Program-made: the position numbers and the translations under genes
Notes under the pieces: generated by a model
The model's database searches: none
The model's input: the letters and a program-made list of their open reading frames with translations, nothing else
What the model was told of the DNA's origin: nothing
Part shown: positions 1 through 35,478 of the stretch, in pieces
How the letters are laid out: each line of letters begins with the position of its first letter
Position numbering within the stretch: position 1 is the first letter of the stretch
Source of the DNA: a virus
Length of the DNA: 35,478 nt
Virus record (IMG/VR): IMGVR_UViG_3300009702_000011
Location: 1 to 35,478 of that record
Strand: one strand, 5' to 3'

Positions 1-123
1 GCGAACTGGACGTGGAACCATGCCAGATCATCAATACCGCAACGCCGATCTATCGTTTCTACCGTCGTTCTCGACGTTGGTAGGCCCGAAACCGCCGGAC
101 GATTTCGTGTCAAACGGTGCGAC
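1..123. repeat. Terminal direct repeat, copy 1 (assembly overlap of a circular or circularly permuted genome)
   Basis: Bases 1-123 (gcgaactggacgtggaaccatgcc...caaacggtgcgac) recur exactly at 35356-35478, the last 123 bases of the window. Confidence 0.95.
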
Positions 124-424
124 AGACGCTCCTGACATTGTGTGGGGGCACGACCTGCGGCCGGCCGCTCATTTTCACGATTTCTGGTATTCAGCGGGTT
201 GCTTCGAACTGCACCTGCCACGCGATGAATTCACGCGATATGAGGCAGACCAGCTATTTCGGACCAACCTGAAAAAGTGCGGTCTCGGGCGACTGCGATT
301 CGCGTATTACTACCGCGTGCGGTTGTGGGGTCATCTGTGCTTTTCGTACTCCCAGGGTTGTGATCCGAAGCGAACGTTTTGGTTCTGGCTCAATTTGCTG
401 GTCGGGAGGTACATCCGATGGTGA
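20..424 (+). CDS. DUF1353-like protein
   Basis: 134-aa ORF with the pattern AAHFHDFWY...TRYEADQLFRTNL...YYYRVRLWG, which I recognise as DUF1353-like. Its stop (422-424) overlaps the next ATG (418). Confidence 0.6.
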   Translation: MPDHQYRNADLSFLPSFSTLVGPKPPDDFVSNGATDAPDIVWGHDLRPAAHFHDFWYSAGCFELHLPRDEFTRYEADQLFRTNLKKCGLGRLRFAYYYRVRLWGHLCFSYSQGCDPKRTFWFWLNLLVGRYIRW

Positions 425-486
425 GGACCATACTGTTGTCACTGTTGCTGGTCGGTCTGCTCGCAGCACCATTGCACGGCCAGTGA
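418..486 (+). CDS. 22-codon signal-peptide-like mini-ORF (MVRTILLSLLLVGLLAAPLHGQ*), in frame with the downstream protease ORF
   Basis: ATG 418 is preceded by GGGAGG (405-410). The peptide has a basic N-terminus, a Leu-rich hydrophobic core and an A-x-L-H-G end, then TGA at 484-486. The same frame stays open into ORF 532..1905. Confidence 0.5.
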   Translation: MVRTILLSLLLVGLLAAPLHGQ

Positions 487-531
487 ACTGCTAGTGGCTG
501 CCCGAGTACCCAGGGCAGCACGGTTGCCGGG

Positions 532-1905
532 TTGCAGCCGTTGCCGTGGCTGAACCCATCGCCGAGCCAATCAATTGGCACCTCTCGCGATATTTCCCAA
601 TGGCCGGCGACCTGCCGGATCAGCGTCCGGGACCGTGATGGGGCAACGTCATATGGGTCTGGGGTATACGCGACTGATGGCATGCACGCTGGCATTATTA
701 CCGCTCACCACGTGCTTCGTGACCGCCGCAGCGACCAGGCAACGGTCTACTTTCCAGCGCTGGCCGTGTCGGTGGCGGCAACCGTAGCGCAACTTGACGC
801 CGGAAACGACGTCGCGGTATTGACACCCGAAGGCGATATCCCGGTGCCACCCTACGATATGGCACGCAGCTCGCCGCAGCCGGGCGAGCAGGTGACGATG
901 ACCGGCTTTGGTGGCGGTGACTTCTTGGCGTGGACCGGGACTGTCCGGAGCCTAGTTGATTATGGATATGGCGACGGCTATCTTCGGCAAAATGCATTGA
1001 CCATCACCACTAGATCGCCGCGCGAAGGCGACTCGGGGGGACCGGTGTGGGATACCAAGGGACGTGTATGCGGGATTGTGACAGCCGGTCGTCAGGATAG
1101 TGCTCTGATGGTACGGTGCTCATTGTTGCGGCGCGTATTGTGTGGCGTGAAACGTGTGATCCAGAGTCGCCCGGGGATCTTGATCCCGAAGATAAAACCG
1201 CAGCAAAGCCGGCAGCAGGTGACCGTGTCGCCAGCCGCACCGACGCCGGCCCCGCAAGTCCCCTCGCCCGTCGTGCCGCCGCCTGTCACGCCAATCACGC
1301 AGGCGGCCACGCCGTCAAATACTACGCCGGAGCCGACGGCAGGCCCGCGAGAGCACCAGTCGCCGTCGCACGGTGGTCTTGTCGCCGGTGCCGCCAGGGC
1401 GATCCCTACGCTAGGCATTGGCTGGTGGACGGCACTGGCCGGTATGGTTGGCATCGGTGGGCCGGTGGGGCTCGGCATCGGCGTTGCCGGTTGGTTGATC
1501 AGTAGACGACTTAAGCGGCAGCTGGTGAGCAGGCTGGATCGCCTCGGCACGCAGAACGCCGAACCGCAGGCGATCCAGACAGCAACGGCCGATACGGTCG
1601 GATCGAAGCAGGGGGCAAGCACGGCACACGTCGAGGATCGGGAACACTCAACCGACCAGGTGCGAGTTGAGCAGCGGATCGAGCGTGAGCCGCGATATGT
1701 GAAAGTAGTTGAGCAGGATCCGCTTGGCGAGGCATACAAGGAGGCGGTCAATCGGGAGATTGAGCTTCAGACCGCGCGAGGTAATCGCGACTGGCTCATC
1801 GTTGGTCCACGTATTCACGATCTCGCAAAACGTCTTGCGAGTCGGCGTGTACCGGCACATGAACAGCGATCCAAGAGCCGTTTTGGTCTTGGGTGGACAG
1901 ACTAG
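532..1905 (+). CDS. Trypsin-like (chymotrypsin-fold) serine protease with Pro-rich linker, TM segment and charged C-terminal domain; true start probably 418 (in-frame TGA at 484)
   Basis: Catalytic-triad contexts are ITAHHVL (His), GNDVAVL (Asp) and REGDSGGPVW (Ser). It has a PAPTPAPQVPSPVVPPPVTP linker and a hydrophobic GIGWWTALAGMVGIGGPVGLGIGVAGWLI segment. There is no SD or ATG at the 532 TTG. Confidence 0.8.
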   Translation: MQPLPWLNPSPSQSIGTSRDISQWPATCRISVRDRDGATSYGSGVYATDGMHAGIITAHHVLRDRRSDQATVYFPALAVSVAATVAQLDAGNDVAVLTPEGDIPVPPYDMARSSPQPGEQVTMTGFGGGDFLAWTGTVRSLVDYGYGDGYLRQNALTITTRSPREGDSGGPVWDTKGRVCGIVTAGRQDSALMVRCSLLRRVLCGVKRVIQSRPGILIPKIKPQQSRQQVTVSPAAPTPAPQVPSPVVPPPVTPITQAATPSNTTPEPTAGPREHQSPSHGGLVAGAARAIPTLGIGWWTALAGMVGIGGPVGLGIGVAGWLISRRLKRQLVSRLDRLGTQNAEPQAIQTATADTVGSKQGASTAHVEDREHSTDQVRVEQRIEREPRYVKVVEQDPLGEAYKEAVNREIELQTARGNRDWLIVGPRIHDLAKRLASRRVPAHEQRSKSRFGLGWTD

Positions 1906-1916
1906 GAGATAATCTC

Positions 1917-2777
1917 ATGCCGGAAAGACAGTTTGGGAGCGACAGGCCATTGCTATATGATGTGCCACCGTGGAATGATCTTGGATTTGCGGTACCGAAT
2001 TTTAGTAATCAGATTGGCTCGCTCAATCTGCCCATCTGGAGGCTTGCTGATGAGGTCGGCAAGGCGCAATTACGGATCATGACGCACATTGACGCTCAGC
2101 GCAACCAATATCCATCGATCAATACGATTCAGCGCATGGGAAAACTGATCAACCGCGTGAAAACCGTGTTGGCCAATCGCAAGAAGGGGTCGACCGTCCA
2201 ACGTCTGGAAGAGGGGCACGCCTCGGCGGATGTGAAGCCATGGCAATTGCACCCGGTACCGTTCTTCACAACGACGCTGGTCCAAAATAGTTGGCTCGGC
2301 GAGTACAACCGGCTCTGCATGATTGCATTGACGAACATGTACCAGCACAGCGACAATAATCTGGCCCTGACAATCACCGAAGAATTCGCCAGTGCAATCT
2401 GGGCGTACTTCAAGGAAATCGCGATGCTGTTAGGAACCGAGCTGCTCGGCCTAACAGCCGCGGCCGTGGAAGCACCCGAGTTCATGTTTTCCGAAGAATC
2501 GTATGGCGGCTATGCTACCATCGCTGATCGGATCATGTCGTTTGAGCCACTCGATACGCCAGGTCCGATCCAGAGCAAGGCCGACGAGCTGGATCTAGCG
2601 CCGCTGTTCGTCGGCATCCCGGCGACCCTCGCCCTCAGTTCACTCGCCGACTACCCGATTGGGCCGGGTGGCATCGGTGCTCAGGGTACGGCTATCCCGC
2701 CAAGAGCCGCGGCGGTCGGCGCAACCACGGGCGGAACGGCGGAGCCGGGCGGCCACATCGGCGAACCACAGATGTAA
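1917..2777 (+). CDS. Hypothetical protein
   Basis: ORF 1893..2777. ATG 1917 follows AGGAG (1904-1908). I recognised no motif. Confidence 0.6.
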   Translation: MPERQFGSDRPLLYDVPPWNDLGFAVPNFSNQIGSLNLPIWRLADEVGKAQLRIMTHIDAQRNQYPSINTIQRMGKLINRVKTVLANRKKGSTVQRLEEGHASADVKPWQLHPVPFFTTTLVQNSWLGEYNRLCMIALTNMYQHSDNNLALTITEEFASAIWAYFKEIAMLLGTELLGLTAAAVEAPEFMFSEESYGGYATIADRIMSFEPLDTPGPIQSKADELDLAPLFVGIPATLALSSLADYPIGPGGIGAQGTAIPPRAAAVGATTGGTAEPGGHIGEPQM

Positions 2778-2790
2778 GCAGGAGCGAACC

Positions 2791-3168
2791 GTGATCCACC
2801 GAACCGCCATGACCGTCGCGGTCCTGCTGCTGCTCGCGTTCGGCGCGCGAGGCGGTGAGCTGGCCGAGGCCCGCCGCCTCGCCCCGAAATACCATGCGAA
2901 GATCGAGGTCGTCCTGTCCGATGGTTCACGGGTCGACCTGCTGAGCGACGAGTACGCGATCGAAGTGGATTGGGCTCCAAAGTGGGCCGAGTCGATCGGT
3001 CAGTCGGTGCATTACGGGTTACTCACGGGTCGCAAGCCGGCAGTAATTTTATTGTTAAAAGATCCGGTCCACGAGTGGCCAGAACTCGTCAGGGCTGCAC
3101 GCGTGTGCGGGCATTTGGGAATCATGCTATTTGTCGAGCAGGTAAAAGGTCAGGAAGGTGGCAACTGA
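2791..3168 (+). CDS. Secreted small protein with possible PD-(D/E)XK-like motif
   Basis: GTG 2791 follows AGGAG (2780-2784). It has a signal-peptide-like MTVAVLLLLAFGA. The segment SDGSRVDLLSDEYAIEVDWAPKWAESIGQSVHY resembles a D...E-x-D/K nuclease-fold core. The function call is weak. Confidence 0.5.
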   Translation: MIHRTAMTVAVLLLLAFGARGGELAEARRLAPKYHAKIEVVLSDGSRVDLLSDEYAIEVDWAPKWAESIGQSVHYGLLTGRKPAVILLLKDPVHEWPELVRAARVCGHLGIMLFVEQVKGQEGGN

Positions 3169-3343
3169 TGCGGAACTAACGCATGACGAAATACTGGCGG
3201 TGCTCGCTTGGATAATGGACCGGTATTGTGGGACGGGTGTGGTAGAGATCGATGCAGCCGATATTGACAACAAAAAGGTACTGGAGATTCACAGGACGGC
3301 GCCTGGATTTTCTGTGATTCTTAAGGGTCAAAGTAAGGGGTAG
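3158..3343 (+). CDS. Hypothetical small protein
   Basis: 61-aa ORF with a GTG start overlapping the upstream stop. No motif and a poor RBS. Confidence 0.3.
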   Translation: MATDAELTHDEILAVLAWIMDRYCGTGVVEIDAADIDNKKVLEIHRTAPGFSVILKGQSKG

Positions 3344-4278: not shown

Positions 4279-4699
4279 CGCAGTTAAATGGGCCACTGGT
4301 ACGAGTCGTACAACAGGCATTAGCTCCGCGAGTCTAGCGGCTGGAGCTAACCTCCTTGGGTCGGCGATTGATAACGCGACCAACAAAGATCGATGGATGA
4401 CATGCAAGCTGACGTGGACGTGCGGCACCGCGGCCACCGCCGACAAAGCAATCGAGTTGTACGTACTGTATGCAGTGGATGGCACCAACTACGAGGATGG
4501 TGACGCTACGCCGACCGATCCACACAAAGGCATGGCCGCAGTGTTCTTCGATGACGGCGGTACTGGAGCGCAGAAGCAAACGGTGGTGAGCGTTCCACTT
4601 ATGCCATTTAAGTTCAAGTTGTTGCTGAAATCCGAGTTAGATCAGACTGCGAGTAGTGTCACATTGTTGGCATACACGCACAACGAGGAAATTCAATAA
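4271..4699 (+). CDS. Hypothetical virion-associated protein
   Basis: 142-aa ORF. It overlaps the upstream stop, and its TAA shares a base with the next ATG (4699). Confidence 0.55.
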   Translation: MPNAVKWATGTSRTTGISSASLAAGANLLGSAIDNATNKDRWMTCKLTWTCGTAATADKAIELYVLYAVDGTNYEDGDATPTDPHKGMAAVFFDDGGTGAQKQTVVSVPLMPFKFKLLLKSELDQTASSVTLLAYTHNEEIQ

Positions 4700-5544
4700 T
4701 GGCGATATTAGCCAATGTGGATTTGCAGCGTCCATTGACAGACCATCCATTGTGGAATGGATTGCGTGGATTGTGGCTGCCAGTTGCAGAGACAGCAAGA
4801 GGTTCGACGCTATATGATCTGAGTCCACGTCCTCACCATGGCACAATGGTTGGCATGACATGGGAGGCTGTGGATGGTCGCCTTGGGCTGAATGGGACAT
4901 CGAATAGTACATACACTTCTATTGGTTCTATTGGACTGACACGATCAGCCGGTGAACCATATACAATGATCGGGGTTGCAAGAACTCGTGGTGCTAGCGG
5001 TACTCACCAAGTGATCATTGGTACTCGTAATGGTAGTAGTGCTGGTGATCTTGACAAATTATCTTTTTCGACATCATTGCTCGTAACATTTGAGTATGAT
5101 CCAACTGGTGGCGGTGCTATAGCGACTGGGACATATGCAAATACCGATCAATGGTACACTTTAATAGGCACCTATGATGGTAGTATTATTCGGCTGTATC
5201 AGGATGGCATAAATACTGGAAGTTCCGTGTCATCAACGGCGGCAATAACGGCTGATGATTATGCGATCGGTCGCCGTTCCGATGATGCTTCAGAGTATCT
5301 CAAAGGCACCTGTGCATTAGCAGCCGTCTACGACAGGGCATTTACTGCCGCTGAGGTGCGTACGTTTTACCAGCAATCCATCACCGGCTACCCAGATCTA
5401 ATCCGCCGCGTGCCAACTCGCCGAGTGTTTTATATGTCACCCGCTGGTGATGTCAATTACCCAGCCACGGTGTTGAACGCCACGGCTACCATCGAAGGCA
5501 CATCAGGTATCCAAGAGAATAGGACACTGGAGCTAACCTTATGA
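4699..5544 (+). CDS. LamG / concanavalin-A-like lectin domain protein (fibre or receptor-binding candidate)
   Basis: WYTLIGTYDGSIIRLYQDGINTGSS...YAIGRRSDD...LKGTCALAAVYDRAFTAAEV matches the LamG-domain pattern (W-h-h-h-G-T-Y-D-G-x-x-h-R-L-Y-x-D-G). Confidence 0.75.
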   Translation: MAILANVDLQRPLTDHPLWNGLRGLWLPVAETARGSTLYDLSPRPHHGTMVGMTWEAVDGRLGLNGTSNSTYTSIGSIGLTRSAGEPYTMIGVARTRGASGTHQVIIGTRNGSSAGDLDKLSFSTSLLVTFEYDPTGGGAIATGTYANTDQWYTLIGTYDGSIIRLYQDGINTGSSVSSTAAITADDYAIGRRSDDASEYLKGTCALAAVYDRAFTAAEVRTFYQQSITGYPDLIRRVPTRRVFYMSPAGDVNYPATVLNATATIEGTSGIQENRTLELTL

Positions 5545-6566: not shown

Positions 6567-6861
6567 CACTTACGACAAAGGCGATCTGGTACGTGTGACA
6601 GCCACGTGGACTGATCCCCTAAACTCAGATGCGGCCATCGATCCATCAACAGTCGCAATAGATGTGACCACACCGAGCGGCACGACAACGCCATACGTCT
6701 ATGGTACGGACGCCGAGGTCAAGCGAGATTCGATTGGTATATATTACATGGATTTGTCACTTACCGAGGAAGGTACATGGAAGTATAGATGGTACTCCAC
6801 TGGTGCAGCGCAGGCGGCCGAACAAGCCAAGATATTCGCCAAGGAAGTGATCACGGTCTAA
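6547..6861 (+). CDS. Small beta-rich (Ig-like?) virion protein
   Basis: 104-aa ORF, with an alternative ATG at 6559. Its TAA shares a base with the HNH ATG at 6861. Confidence 0.6.
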   Translation: METPMANTYDKGDLVRVTATWTDPLNSDAAIDPSTVAIDVTTPSGTTTPYVYGTDAEVKRDSIGIYYMDLSLTEEGTWKYRWYSTGAAQAAEQAKIFAKEVITV

Positions 6862-7175
6862 TGCCAACAGCAGCAGCAACACGGTGTGCAAGATGTGGCA
6901 AGGTGAGCAGTGGCCGATGTGACTGCACGGTTGATCAACGAGTGCATGATAAGCAACGAGGCAGCTCGGCTAAGCGTGGGTACGATCGTAGGTGGCAGCA
7001 GTTTAGAACGTGGTTCCTCGGTCAGCACCGCTGGTGCCATGACTGTGGCAAGGTGGCAACCGAGGTACATCACATCAAGATGCTGCGAGATTATCCCGAG
7101 CTGCGATTAGATAGCGACAACTGTATGGCACTGTGTCACGCGTGCCATTTGAAAAGGACAAAGCGTGGCGAATGA
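6861..7175 (+). CDS. HNH endonuclease (packaging-associated, adjacent to terminase)
   Basis: CARCG...CDC...WCHDCG...EVHHIKMLRD...NCMALCHACHLKRT gives zinc-finger Cys pairs plus an HNH core. It lies immediately upstream of cos/terS, as in HK97-like phages. Confidence 0.85.
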   Translation: MPTAAATRCARCGKVSSGRCDCTVDQRVHDKQRGSSAKRGYDRRWQQFRTWFLGQHRWCHDCGKVATEVHHIKMLRDYPELRLDSDNCMALCHACHLKRTKRGE

Positions 7176-7274
7176 TCAGACGGGGGGGTACGTTCAACAT
7201 TTTGAGGTCAAAAATGTAGACCAAACCCCCACCCGCATATATTTTTCTCCGCAACCAATCCGGTGGGGCCGGCA
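7176..7274. other. Candidate cos / packaging-recognition region
   Basis: This is a 99-bp non-coding gap between the HNH gene and terS. It holds a G7 run (7182-7188), an opposed ACCCCCACCC (7225-7234) and an AT-rich tract. Confidence 0.3.
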
Positions 7275-7736
7275 ATGCCAACAGGACGCAAACCAACACC
7301 GACGCGACTTAAACTGCTTCGCGGAGTTGACAAAGTACATCTAGAGCGGATCAATCGCAATGAGCCACAGCCAGACGAGACAACGCCAATCATGCCGAGC
7401 GGTCTTGACCCGATGGCGAAGCGACGATGGCGTGAGTTGAGCAAGATATTGCGGTCGATGCGAGTACTGACGATCGCGGACCGTCAGGCGTTGGCAACGT
7501 TGTGCCAGACGATTTCAGACATTCATAAGATGCGAAAGATACTAGCGAAAGATGGTCATGTCGTTGACACGGAACGTGGACCGATTCGCAACCCAGCGGC
7601 AATCGAGCTTCACAAACTCGAAGACATTCAACTGAAATTACTGGCCGAGTTCGGACTGACACCAAGTAGTCGCAGTCGCATTACGGTTGAACCCAAGAAA
7701 TCGTCAATCAAGCCGAGGGAGCGCAAGAAGGCGTGA
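7275..7736 (+). CDS. terS: Terminase small subunit (P27-family-like)
   Basis: MPTGRKPTPTRLKLLRG...EP.P......P..L...A...W is typical of P27-family small terminases. It sits directly upstream of terL with a GTGA overlap. Confidence 0.85.
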   Translation: MPTGRKPTPTRLKLLRGVDKVHLERINRNEPQPDETTPIMPSGLDPMAKRRWRELSKILRSMRVLTIADRQALATLCQTISDIHKMRKILAKDGHVVDTERGPIRNPAAIELHKLEDIQLKLLAEFGLTPSSRSRITVEPKKSSIKPRERKKA

Positions 7737-9346
7737 CGGATCGCATTACGAAACACTGGGTCTTAGACGCGTCCGACGAGCTGGCAGTGCGCAATGGCTG
7801 CCGGTTCGACGAGTCGCGAGCCCAGCATGTGATGCAGTTCTTCGAGCAGCAGTTAGTGCTTTATGAAGGCGATTGTGCCGGGCAACCTTTCAGATTGATG
7901 GACTGGCAGGCGTTGTTTTTGTCGCGGCTCTTCGGTTGGGTCCGATATAGCAAGCATTTTGGTCGCGAGGTACGTCGCTTCCGCAAGGCATCTCTGTGGG
8001 TGCCCAAAAAAAATGGCAAGTCACCGACTGGCGCCGGCATCGGACTGTATTTGCTCGTCGCAGACGGCGAACTTGGTCAGAAAGTGTTTTCAGCAGCACG
8101 GGACGGTCGACAGGCCGGGATCATGCACATGCACGCGCGGCAGATGGTGTTGCAATCGCCGGCACTGCGCGAATGTTGCACGATTAATAAATCGACCGGG
8201 CGCATAACCCACGAGCCAACGCGTTCGTGGTATGAGATCATGTCGGCTGACAATGTGCGGTCACAGGAAGGTTACAACGGCTCGGTGATCATTGACGAGA
8301 CGCACGTTGTCGATGATCGGTTGGCGAAAGTGCTTGAGTATGCTGGCGCGAGTCGCGCTGAGCCATTGCAGGTTGAATTGTCGACGGCCGGCGACACCCC
8401 CGAAGGTTACGGCAAGCGACAGTGGGATTACGGCCAGGCGGTTGCTGACGGTCGCATCAAAGACGATTCATTTCTGTACGTGGCTTACGCGGCGCCGCAG
8501 GATGCCAGTGACAAGGAGCTGGCCAAGAAGAAGACCTGGCGAGCGGCTAACCCGTCAATGGGCGTGACGGTCAACGAGGAGGAGTTCGCCGCATCGCTCA
8601 AGCGTGCTAAGCGGACGCCACACGACTGGGCGGTGTTCAAGAAGTACCGGTTCAACATTTGGCAAAACTCGGCGAATCCGTGGTTTAACCTCGATGACGA
8701 CTGGTGGCCCAGCCAAGACACCGAGACGGACATTAAAGGCTATGAGTGCGTTGCTGGCCTGGACCTTTCGCGGACTCGGGATATGTCGGCCTTGGTGCTA
8801 CTGATCCGTGTGGACGATCATCTACACCAGCGTGCATGGTTCTGGTTGCCGGAGCAACGGGCGCGCGAAATCGAAGAGGTTGGTATCGCGTCAATCAGCC
8901 AGTGGGAGAAAGATGGCTGGCTCGAGGTTACGCCGGGCAACGTGATCGATTACCAGTACATCGAGGATCGCGTTGCGAAGTTGGCTCAGGAGTATTACAT
9001 CACGCGGTTGGTGTTTGACCCGCGATTTGCCGAGGAACTGACCCAGCGGATCGAGATGAACTATGGTATTCAGCGAGTCGCGTTAGCGCAGTCGGCCGCG
9101 AAAATGACACCACCGATTGACGAATACGAGCGGCAAGTGTTGGCTCACACGATCCATCACGATGGCAACCCGGTGCTCGCCTGGCAGGCTGGCAATGTGA
9201 AGGTTCACACGTATCCAAGCGGTGTCAAGATGCTGGTGAAGCCGGACTTTGACCAAATGAAATCAATTGACGGCATCGTGGCGGCTGTAATCGCGATGAG
9301 CGAGGCAATGGCGGTCGACTCGGTTGGCAAACCTGCTATTTATTGA
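7733..9346 (+). CDS. terL: Terminase large subunit
   Basis: 537 aa. It carries a Walker-A-like VPKKNGKSPTGAG, an IIDETH Walker-B/DExH-like motif and a C-terminal nuclease region (GLDLS...D). The position is conserved. Confidence 0.95.
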   Translation: MTDRITKHWVLDASDELAVRNGCRFDESRAQHVMQFFEQQLVLYEGDCAGQPFRLMDWQALFLSRLFGWVRYSKHFGREVRRFRKASLWVPKKNGKSPTGAGIGLYLLVADGELGQKVFSAARDGRQAGIMHMHARQMVLQSPALRECCTINKSTGRITHEPTRSWYEIMSADNVRSQEGYNGSVIIDETHVVDDRLAKVLEYAGASRAEPLQVELSTAGDTPEGYGKRQWDYGQAVADGRIKDDSFLYVAYAAPQDASDKELAKKKTWRAANPSMGVTVNEEEFAASLKRAKRTPHDWAVFKKYRFNIWQNSANPWFNLDDDWWPSQDTETDIKGYECVAGLDLSRTRDMSALVLLIRVDDHLHQRAWFWLPEQRAREIEEVGIASISQWEKDGWLEVTPGNVIDYQYIEDRVAKLAQEYYITRLVFDPRFAEELTQRIEMNYGIQRVALAQSAAKMTPPIDEYERQVLAHTIHHDGNPVLAWQAGNVKVHTYPSGVKMLVKPDFDQMKSIDGIVAAVIAMSEAMAVDSVGKPAIY

Positions 9347-22783: not shown

Positions 22784-22839
22784 ATGTGTAGTGATTGAGT
22801 TATGAGTTCAGTTCAGGGTTCCTTTGGCAAAGGAGATTG

Positions 22840-23346
22840 ATGATGGAAACGACGACAACGATCTATGTTTGCTCGAACGTCGAAACACTCAACGGGTATT
22901 TTCTGCGGACTGGTGCCAACCTCAGTGAATATGCCGAGGATATCGTCGATGCGGGAATCGCGGTCATTCGCGACGACCCGCGCGTCGACTACGTCACCTC
23001 GGCAGCGTATTGCGCGTGGCATGGCGGCACGCACGACAGCGCTGGCGTGGTAATTTGTGGCGACCGATACGGATTTGCAACGAGATTCGTCGCCACGCAC
23101 GAGCGAAATCCTGCTCCGTGGCTCTGTGATCTATGCGACCAGGTGTCCGATGCGATGATCGCGAAGGCACGAGAGCTGGGGGTCAAGCAGGCCAACGAGC
23201 TGGCCATGGGGGTAATCTACGACATCGAGAACGGAGACGAGCCAAACCCGTTCGTCGTGGACAACCTGACCATGGATGAGCTGGAACCGGAGATCGCGCG
23301 GCGACTCGATGAATCGCTGCGAGAACACGCCAATGCAGGACGCTGA
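22840..23346 (+). CDS. First early protein, unknown function (acidic C-terminus)
   Basis: ATG 22840 follows AAGGAGA. 168 aa. Confidence 0.6.
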   Translation: MMETTTTIYVCSNVETLNGYFLRTGANLSEYAEDIVDAGIAVIRDDPRVDYVTSAAYCAWHGGTHDSAGVVICGDRYGFATRFVATHERNPAPWLCDLCDQVSDAMIAKARELGVKQANELAMGVIYDIENGDEPNPFVVDNLTMDELEPEIARRLDESLREHANAGR

Positions 23347-23478
23347 AGCCGAGAGCAAAACAGAGAGCGAGTAAGCAACCAATCTTCCCCCAGCGGCCGT
23401 AACGCCGGCGCATCTGCTGGGGGTGGAATCGACCAAGCCGGTAAACCTCAAATGCCCCATGGTGGGCAGGAGTGGAAA

Positions 23479-23805
23479 ATGACGCGTTACAACATGTCGG
23501 ACGGGACGATTGTCGACACGAGCAAATCAAGCAAACAGTGGAAGGAGGAAACGGAGTGGGACGGAAACAACCATATCAGTTGTGCGACCGGTTGCCAGTG
23601 GGATCATGAGACGTTGTACCGGTCGCGGCGGGGCCGGTATTATGTTGTCCACGATTCGCAGTATCAATGTCGTCGCGAGTACGCCGAGTGGCTCAGCAAT
23701 GAGGAAGCCGTTCGTTGGCTCAGTGCCAACGGATATTTTGACGACGACAGCACGGAGGAGATCCCAGAAGAGCTGACGAAGTTGGTCGACGAGTTAACCG
23801 AGTAG
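23479..23805 (+). CDS. Conserved phage hypothetical protein
   Basis: MTRYNMSDGTIVDTSKSSKQWKEETEWDGNNHIS...TLYRSRRGRYYVVH is a pattern I recall from uncharacterised prophage proteins. ATG follows GGAG. Confidence 0.55.
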   Translation: MTRYNMSDGTIVDTSKSSKQWKEETEWDGNNHISCATGCQWDHETLYRSRRGRYYVVHDSQYQCRREYAEWLSNEEAVRWLSANGYFDDDSTEEIPEELTKLVDELTE

Positions 23806-35355: not shown

Positions 35356-35478
35356 GCGAACTGGACGTGGAACCATGCCAGATCATCAATACCGCAACGC
35401 CGATCTATCGTTTCTACCGTCGTTCTCGACGTTGGTAGGCCCGAAACCGCCGGACGATTTCGTGTCAAACGGTGCGAC
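35356..35478. repeat. Terminal direct repeat, copy 2
   Basis: Identical to 1-123. It contains the start of the 20..424 ORF again. Confidence 0.95.

Follow-up and report, generated by a model that had tools for sequence, protein, structure and literature searches.

Whether a stop codon between a signal peptide and a protease is decoded as an amino acid was the question raised by a gene at positions 418-1905 of IMGVR_UViG_3300009702_000011, a virus record in IMG/VR. The window, meaning the whole stretch of DNA analysed, comprised 35,478 nucleotides (nt), and all coordinates refer to it unless another contig is named. Residues of the protease are counted from nt 487 as residue 1. The gene starts at ATG 418, encodes a signal peptide and reaches an in-frame TGA at 484-486, behind which the same frame leads into a serine protease. 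Judged from comparison of sequences, this UGA is probably read as selenocysteine (Sec), which would make the product a candidate phage-encoded selenoprotein with a Sec/Cys pair. Under a rule applied in the field, a new selenoprotein family needs homologues with Cys, TGA in two or more different sequences and a structure resembling a Sec insertion sequence (SECIS) (PMC1088965). By this rule, the locus most likely counts as a new selenoprotein family and is called a family candidate here.

Signal peptide and protease in one reading frame

An earlier note on this DNA had described ATG 418 with a GGGAGG Shine-Dalgarno sequence and an overlap with the upstream stop codon, a signal peptide running into TGA 484-486, and continuation of the frame without a stop into the protease open reading frame (ORF). 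All of this was confirmed by direct reading. The frame is open from 487 to TAG 1903-1905, which corresponds to 472 codons past the TGA. By inspection, the signal peptide consists of MVR, 15 hydrophobic residues and PLHG/Q. The same layout is present in homologues, whose signal peptides end in (G/A)Q or A-x-A just ahead of the first Cys. A reading of ..TASG-C as a lipobox, and thus of the product as a lipoprotein, was rejected, with the hydrophobic region ending about nine residues earlier and the homologues showing A-x-A or (G/A)Q sites of the signal peptidase I (SPase I) type. The statement that no start codon follows the TGA held for ATG ahead of the catalytic domain and for Shine-Dalgarno sequences, but not for TTG, which is present in frame at 532 and 541; ATG 679 lies further on.

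A conserved cysteine at the position of the UGA

In relatives, one continuous ORF runs from the signal peptide through a C-x4-C motif into the protease (L002, L003, L006, L017 (P0128), L018/L019 (P0126), P0127, P0129 and L052). The site of the UGA is occupied by a Cys codon, TGC or TGT, in L001, L002/L003, L006, L017, L018/L019 and L052, and by Cys in the proteins P0127 and P0129. The closest protein, P0002, is located on L001. The upstream DNA reads ..CACGGCCAG-TGC-ACTGCTAGCGGCTGCCC.. there, and its TGC aligned exactly with the TGA of the window, giving HGQ-C-TASG-C-P in L001 and HGQ-[TGA]-TASG-C-P in the window. Other forms of the motif were ASD-C-ANGM-C-P (L003/L002), ASD-C-INGM-C-P (P0126 on L018/L019), SGS-C-VTGM-C-P (P0127), SQ-C-GPGG-C-G (P0129), WGQ-C-TDGS-C-N (P0128 on L017), YGQ-C-PDGS-C-SGGT-C-P (L052) and QR-C-QGGS-C-QGGS-C-QGGS-C-P (L006). 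An exhaustive HMMER search yielded 197 cluster representatives at E <= 1e-30, of which the best 151 were used for motif counts. Near the N-terminus, 70 of these 151 carried C-x4-C and 46 carried C-x4-C-P, and (G/A/S)Q-C directly after the signal peptide was found in 32. The exact placement of the TGA on the first Cys of the motif favours selenocysteine over generic readthrough.

The start of the gene was conserved as well. The context GGGAGGTAC..ATGGT is kept in L002/L003 and L018/L019, and L017 has the variant GGGAGATAT..ATGGT. GGGAGG together with the ATGGTGA overlap is kept in L002/L003, with close variants in L017 and L018/L019. The same pair of upstream gene and protease gene, with its overlap, was present in L002/L003, L017 and L051, and the overlap in L018/L019 uses TAA (ATGGTAA). 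The exact DNA pattern of the N-terminal island had no match in IMG/VR, and positions 1-3200 had no blastn match among 50,697 phage records.

Several relatives differed in this region. The motif of L006, an IMG/VR relative, is triplicated by a 15-nt tandem repeat, TGCCAGGGCGGCTCC, with three copies at 8433-8480 of that contig. A thioredoxin domain (WCxPC) stands at the N-terminus in place of the short C-x4-C in P0004, P0230 and P0274 and at L034, L038 and L044. The frame changes between the signal-peptide part and the protease at 116-145 of L001, where three Ns occur, and likewise at about 2770-2920 of L051, a contig named like a long-read assembly. Both changes are probably sequence errors.

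TGA recurs at the same site in divergent relatives

The contigs of five annotated family members without an N-terminus (P0175, P0182, P0166, P0171 and P0164) were looked up, and two of the five carried TGA. On L049 (Logan ERR14788036, encoding P0175), the sequence is MTGRIVLLWALLIATPLWGQ-[TGA]-PTTAGDSCQPAVAGQLQPMPWLQ..protease, with the motif ..PLWGQ-[TGA]-PTTAGDS-C-Q... On L050 (ENA ERZ27262694, an 81-kb contig encoding P0182), it is MSKMLIAVFGVLLMPAVVLPGGS-[TGA]-TGSCSSADLPVW..protease, with the motif ..LPGGS-[TGA]-TGS-C-S... In both, the single TGA shares its frame with a long, intact protease ORF and with a signal peptide equipped with a start and a ribosome-binding site of its own. The ORF called 3' of the TGA comprises 349 amino acids (aa) in L049 and 468 aa in L050. 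Protease-domain identity among the window, L049 and L050 was 27-35%. In a rough tree, L049 and L050 shared a clade with two Cys forms, L001 and P0165, beside which the window branched. Comparison with relatives, which the earlier note had proposed as a way to tell a sense codon from a conserved TGA, thus gave both: a Cys codon in most, and TGA in L049 and L050. The remaining three members were rejected as further TGA forms: P0166 (L051) and P0171 (L052/L053) are Cys forms, the former with its frame shifted and the latter with its start mis-called, and P0164 (L054) is cut off by the contig end. A second genome scan and two further IMG/VR scans found many family members and no additional TGA form, and the transmembrane-segment-specific patterns of the first genome scan found nothing.

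These data bear on the possibility, also raised in the earlier note, of an inactivating TGC-to-TGA nonsense mutation in a dispensable gene or of a sequencing or assembly error. A single C-to-A change would turn the TGC of the relative into TGA, and the disrupted frames of L001 and L051 resemble sequence errors. However, an independent Logan assembly of run SRR6056608 (L008) was identical across the TGA site, so that the TGA is not an assembly artefact. Retention of TGA at one site across such divergence, with intact downstream ORFs, rejects a merely inactivating stop, as do the length of the open frame in the window and the genome itself, a complete circle rather than a decaying prophage. This explanation was therefore effectively refuted.

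A code in which TGA is an ordinary sense codon of the phage or its host (table 4, table 25 or a phage-specific code) was refuted even more firmly. In-frame TGA codons are a hallmark of such genomes, yet TGA was the commonest stop codon of the window, ending 32 of the 57 selected ORFs and 67 of the 121 long stop-to-stop ORFs, many of them in ATGA or GTGA overlaps. In L050, TGA terminates 8 of 14 genes. The search for other TGA-interrupted genes across the window found none that was convincing, and the phage carries no suppressor tRNA. The use of TGA as the commonest ordinary stop, together with the lack of another interrupted gene, excludes a reassigned code. Two same-frame ORFs at 22795-23805 are split by TGA 23344-23346, the second being without a start codon until 23452. 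Neither had a family match, and no Cys position could be recognised at this TGA.

Whether the UGA simply terminates translation can be judged from the stretch that separates it from the first possible start codon. In all three TGA forms, the motif Cys precedes any possible start codon. L049 has no ATG, GTG or TTG from the TGA to the Met of QPMPWL, and its VAG(Q)LQP.PWL segment matches the window with four synonymous differences. This coding conservation indicates that the stretch is translated, which would require decoding of the UGA. If the UGA were a true stop, the locus would comprise two cistrons: a 22-residue hydrophobic peptide and a protease without signal peptide, produced by reinitiation at TTG 532, TTG 541 or ATG 679. 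Gene callers annotate the genes in this way, starting the window protein (P0001) at ATG 679 and P0175 and P0182 at internal starts, and in three lineages the stop falls exactly where the signal peptide ends, which could delimit a small membrane peptide. Against this, the internal starts lack Shine-Dalgarno sequences, and ATG 679 deletes the first strands of a domain that begins at residue 57 in Pfam and at residue 31 in the structural model. The motif Cys and the VAG..LQP segment precede every possible start yet evolve as coding sequence, and every Cys-form homologue is a fused ORF. An exported N-terminal domain, which would need a signal peptide, is also implied by the positive charges past the transmembrane segment. 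A two-cistron arrangement is improbable. Fusion in eight homologue lineages and the recurrence of TGA in L049 and L050 bear out the claim that signal peptide and protease form one gene requiring UGA decoding.

Hairpins downstream of the UGA as candidate bSECIS elements

The perfect 7-bp hairpin at 497-503/513-519, noticed before with its 9-nt loop and a stem starting 10 nt after the A of the TGA, was found exactly as described. The model for bacterial SECIS elements (bSECIS) specifies a loop of 3-9 nt on an upper stem of 4-16 bp, G as first or second loop base, a UGA-to-loop distance of 16-37 nt and a free energy of <= -7.5 kcal/mol (PMC13188914). Hairpin 1 of the window agreed with all four constraints, having a 9-nt loop, GAGUACCCA, with G in first position, 7 bp, a spacing of 17 nt and -14.9 kcal/mol for the isolated structure. 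It also belonged to the minimum-free-energy fold. An equally good downstream hairpin (perfect stem of at least 7 bp, loop of 3-9 nt with G as first or second base, spacing of 16-37 nt) was found for 0.9% of + strand window positions.

Hairpins were also present in the other two TGA forms. The hairpin of L049, GCAGGC-GAUUCCUGUCA-GCCUGC, starts 9 nt past the UGA and, at 23 nt, has the same total length as that of the window. In an ungapped comparison of the two, 6 of 7 pairs were kept, two of them by compensatory double changes (U-A to A-U and C-G to G-C). The pairs were compared by hand from the sequences, the MAFFT alignment having put the hairpins out of register and three sequences not sufficing for covariation statistics. 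In L050, an imperfect hairpin of 14 bp begins inside the UGA, with the loop AGCUCA and z = -1.7 to -2.3. A loop G is the first base in the window hairpin and the second in the main L050 hairpin, and in L049 it is present only in the form with an 11-nt loop. The Cys forms L003, L018 and L006 showed no comparable hairpin, and L052 has just a 5-bp stem. Hairpin 2 of the window, which follows directly on hairpin 1, is kept as 6 bp in L001 and, by reading of the sequence, is not kept in L049.

Nucleotide identity between the window and L001 was 84-89% at 475-540 and about 50% over the remaining gene. Among codons for the same amino acid, 17 were identical and 2 synonymous in this island, compared with 55 and 86 in the gene outside it (Fisher p = 3e-5). 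This synonymous conservation fits a constraint at the RNA level, and a recent recombination patch may also have left it. Remnant SECIS elements have been described in Cys forms of selenoproteins (PMC1794560), and the stem of L001 could be a remnant or pre-adapted SECIS of this kind or serve another purpose.

The main competitor of Sec insertion is hairpin-stimulated near-cognate readthrough, by which Trp, Cys or Arg would be inserted and a low level of exported protease produced. UGA is the leakiest stop codon in bacteria, and the TGA of all three sequences is followed closely by a stable hairpin. Not all of these hairpins fit the canonical SECIS model, and the Sec machinery of the host is only presumed. 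Readthrough does not account for a TGA placed precisely on a strongly conserved Cys, where insertion of mostly Trp would destroy the two-Cys motif, and the window hairpin satisfies every bSECIS constraint. Family members with 'GQ-W', considered as Trp equivalents of the UGA, were mostly rejected as such, the full C-x4-C being retained further on in most of them (P0201, P0273). Readthrough is accordingly rated as unlikely, with selenocysteine remaining the preferred reading of the codon.

Proposed decoding of the UGA and evidence against it

Under Sec insertion, translation would begin at ATG 418, coupled to the upstream gene. SelB with Sec-tRNA(Sec), recruited by the hairpin at 497-519 as bSECIS, would insert Sec at codon 23. 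Termination at the UGA would release only the 22-residue signal peptide. Insertion would yield the full pre-protein, to be exported and cleaved by signal peptidase near ..LHG/Q. The mature N-terminus would be the flexible Q-U-T-A-S-G-C-P, and Q-U-TASGCPSTQGSTVAGLQPLPW would be the junction peptide. The mature protease would be tethered by the transmembrane helix, with its domain outside the cytoplasm and its tail inside. The U...C pair probably serves as a selenylsulfide/thiol redox or metal-binding module, some members having a thioredoxin domain at the same end. A regulatory extension, in which phages gate the exported protease by inefficient Se- and SelB-dependent UGA decoding and so couple the amount or timing of an envelope-degrading enzyme to the selenium or translational state of the host, is doubtful. 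The core idea of the earlier note, a decoded UGA joining signal peptide and protease, is right, and its interpretation as a whole is partly supported by these comparisons.

The host of the phage is probably a planctomycete. In the genome scan, the genome-borne relatives of the protease were overwhelmingly from Planctomycetota (Pirellulales, Thermoguttaceae, Planctomycetaceae and Gemmata). One distant homologue came from a metagenome-assembled genome (MAG) of Pirellulales. The two named relatives of the large terminase were from the planctomycete Anatilimnocola (53% identity) and from a MAG of Acidobacteriales. No tRNA-like attP core was found around the integrase. Several planctomycetes hold complete gene sets for Sec insertion and selenoproteins (PMC4807772), by analogy with which Sec machinery (selA, selB, selC and selD) in the host of this phage is plausible.

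Several observations weigh against Sec insertion. No tRNA and no sel gene was found on the phage genome. Only three TGA sequences were found, the 40 genome loci and about 30 IMG/VR loci scanned adding none, and their U-to-C spacing varies (x4, x7 and x3). The local folding energy of the window was modest (z = -1.3 to -1.6). Rfam searches at gathering and permissive thresholds returned no SECIS family, only a chance aspS match with E = 1.2. The L049 hairpin fits the bSECIS model in part, its loop being either 11 nt or 4 nt without G. The main hairpin of L050 has a spacing of 12 nt, and an alternative hairpin with a GUU loop at 30 nt reached only -6.2 kcal/mol. A single homologous structure is thus not clearly shared by the three TGA forms. 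The Cys form L001 has the same stem as the window, so that the hairpin is not strictly tied to TGA. The N-terminal 30 residues were of low confidence in the AlphaFold2 model, which is uninformative for the motif, and no established structural or redox role explains a Sec so close to the N-terminus of an exported protease.

Protease domain and membrane anchor

The features of the gene are listed in Table 1. Pfam assigned the catalytic domain to Trypsin_2 with 64.2 bits against a cut-off of 27.6. The His/Asp/Ser triad proposed before was recovered as His75 (nt 709-711), Asp108 (808-810) and Ser183 (1033-1035). In an alignment of 63 sequences, His75 and Ser183 were invariant and Asp108 was conserved to at least 90%. 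The AlphaFold2 model showed a two-barrel chymotrypsin fold with a mean predicted local distance difference test (pLDDT) score of 86 and values above 90 over residues 31-227. Best Foldseek matches were MarP Rv3671c, DegS and DegP with a probability of 1.00, and sequence matches in the PDB were 3k6y and 3k6z. The NCBIfam model for MarP (NF033740) scored 47.9 bits against a cut-off of 250, the models for DegP, DegS and HtrA were far under their cut-offs, and no PDZ domain was matched by Pfam. The protease resembles MarP/HtrA proteases, yet it is not a member of those families. The sequence GDSGGP reads GMSGGP in P0175 and GQSGGP in P0182, with Ser retained.

Table 1. Features of the protease gene and its upstream overlap (window coordinates).
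Feature	Position	Strand	Details
Upstream coupled gene	20..424	+	134 aa; TGA stop 422-424 overlaps the protease start as ATGGTGA
Shine-Dalgarno GGGAGG	404..409	+	8 nt before ATG 418; direct reading
Signal peptide, 22 codons, MVRTILLSLLLVGLLAAPLHGQ	418..483	+	Direct reading; likely SPase I site after ..LHG or ..HGQ
In-frame UGA, residue 23 counted from ATG 418, candidate Sec codon	484..486	+	Occupies the site of the first Cys in the C-x4-C(P) motif
TGC, second Cys of U-x4-C-P	499..501	+	After the UGA and ahead of TTG 532, the earliest possible internal start
Hairpin 1, candidate bSECIS	497..519	+	GCUGCCC/GGGCAGC, 7 bp, 9-nt loop GAGUACCCA
Hairpin 2	520..541	+	8 bp including one G-U pair, loop CGGGUU; directly abuts hairpin 1; minimum-free-energy fold
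Synonymous-site conservation island against L001	475..540	+	Covers hairpins 1 and 2 and the UGA/UGC codon
S1 (chymotrypsin-fold, S1C/MarP-like) serine protease domain	577..1167	+	Pfam Trypsin_2, AlphaFold2, Foldseek
Pro/Thr/Gln-rich linker	1171..1413	+	Translation; low-confidence and unstructured past residue 228 in the AlphaFold2 model
Transmembrane segment GIGWWTALAGMVGIGGPVGLGIGVAGWLI, then basic SRRLKR	1414..1500	+	Translation
Predicted cytoplasmic C-terminal tail, about 134 aa; TAG 1903-1905	1501..1905	+	Aligns with the tails of P0002 and L003

A transmembrane anchor had been noticed before and was present, but it is not C-terminal, with about 134 residues following it. The segment was nearly identical in P0002, P0126, P0127 and L003. 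Its sequence, GIGWWTA.AG..G.GGPVGLGIGVAGWLISRRLK, was almost identical even in relatives with protease domains just 30-34% identical, and the synonymous sites varied freely (15 identical codons against 15 synonymous differences). Conservation of the protein with variable synonymous sites indicates strong protein-level selection on the helix, which is perhaps selected for a specific membrane partner. By the positive-inside rule, the basic residues after the helix would place the protease domain outside and the tail inside. In L049 and L050 (P0175 and P0182), as well as in P0128, P0166 and P0171, collagen-like G-x-y repeats follow the protease domain instead of the transmembrane anchor.

Comparison with known systems

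Bacterial selenoprotein genes of the E. coli fdhF type share with this family a UGA on a conserved Cys, at least two divergent TGA sequences and Cys homologues. The hairpin 9-10 nt past the UGA in the window and L049, or overlapping the UGA in L050, is a further likeness, as is the second Cys within a few residues, which recalls redox motifs of the UxxC type. The remnant-like hairpin of the Cys form L001 has a parallel too (PMC1794560). In contrast to these genes, the present one is carried by a phage, its Sec would be at mature position 1-2 outside a recognised redox fold, and the U-to-C spacing is 3-7 residues rather than 2.

A 2008 survey of ocean metagenomes (GOS) predicted Sec in two other serine-protease families (PMC2398784). 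As here, these were predicted, secreted S1-type proteases in which Sec replaces Cys. The Sec of the COG5640 family is placed inside the catalytic domain (..SWGYGU..), and the 'MucD' reads carry a thioredoxin-like CxxU (..FRCEPU..). The GOS proteases were not reported from phages. The present family has a candidate U-x(3-7)-C segment right after the signal peptide of a Trypsin_2/MarP-like protease, and it does not qualify by the criterion of that survey.

MarP (Rv3671c) and the HtrA proteases DegS and DegP, the best structure and sequence matches, are likewise membrane-tethered or periplasmic envelope proteases. Unlike them, the present protease lacks PDZ, carries an N-terminal Cys/Sec motif and is phage-encoded. 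The transmembrane helices of MarP are N-terminal, whereas the present protein begins with a signal peptide and has its membrane anchor C-terminal to the domain. MarP, the nearest solved relative, is reported to depend on a disulfide for its activity.

Among eukaryotic viruses, selenoproteins are reportedly encoded by molluscum contagiosum virus and fowlpox virus as glutathione peroxidase homologues. These also are virus genes that depend on the Sec insertion machinery of the host. They differ in having eukaryotic-type SECIS elements and in being captured host antioxidant enzymes, compared with a bacteriophage protease with a candidate bacterial-type SECIS in the coding region. Genome-wide reassignment of TAG or TGA occurs in phages, and there, too, an in-frame stop must be read as sense. 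In the present case, this would concern one codon in a 35-kb genome in a site-specific manner, with TGA otherwise terminating most genes.

The mechanism would be ordinary bacterial Sec insertion. New features would be the phage-borne gene and Sec at the mature N-terminus of an exported protease. No report of a bacteriophage-encoded selenoprotein was found in the literature searched, and the words 'phage', 'protease' and 'peptidase' were absent from the text of a 2026 review of prokaryotic selenoproteomes and of the BSepDB paper. If the Sec reading is true, this would be the first selenoprotein described for a bacteriophage, as far as could be found. Bacterial viruses would then exploit site-specific recoding via SelB and tRNA(Sec) of the host, and phage expression would be tied to a trace element. 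Gene callers split or truncate such genes, as seen for P0001, P0175 and P0182, so that cases would be systematically hidden in viral catalogues.

No earlier description was found of C-x4-C(P) at the mature N-terminus of this large protease family, most of which is associated with planctomycetes. Its Sec variants, together with those fused to thioredoxin, probably mark C-x4-C(P) as a redox module. The 60-nt element at 484-545 is a compact candidate SECIS that may stem from Planctomycetota, and we know of no experimental test of SECIS rules in that phylum.

Phage genome and neighbouring genes

An exact 123-nt direct repeat was present at 1-123 and 35356-35478. This terminal overlap indicates a circular assembly and a complete genome of 35,355 bp, in which the gene at 20-424 follows the RusA region across the junction. 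The window is a complete, circular genome of a temperate, siphovirus-like phage. Its genes include those for both terminase subunits (small and large), portal, ClpP-like prohead protease, major capsid protein, head-tail connector, tail genes and tape measure. Integrase, Cro/CI-type regulator, DNA methyltransferase, DnaD-like loader, DnaB-like helicase and RusA are encoded as well. The protease was present in none of the phage contigs related by their large terminase (L009-L016).

The protease gene is placed between the RusA and HNH/terminase genes, a position at which lambdoid phages carry lysis genes. The upstream gene at 20-424 was weakly phospholipase-A2-like, with matches to the Pfam families Phospholip_A2_3 (E = 0.06) and DUF1353 (E = 0.01) and to PDB entries 7ygk and 8k1w (E about 0.007). 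The neighbour on the upstream side in L050 (2057-2824) is a class-3 lipase with a GHSLGG motif. No endolysin, holin or spanin was recognised in the phage with Pfam and PHROGs. Position and neighbour are suggestive, and a role of the protease and the phospholipase-like protein in envelope degradation or lysis is possible. About 12 ORFs without assigned function, several of them with predicted membrane segments, are found from RusA to HNH and the small terminase (34806-7736 across the junction), where a Laminin_G_3 protein is also encoded at 4699-5544. The HNH endonuclease gene is immediately 5' of the small terminase gene (6789-7736), and the same arrangement was seen in L011 and L018. An HNH gene beside the small terminase is typical of HNH-dependent cos packaging.

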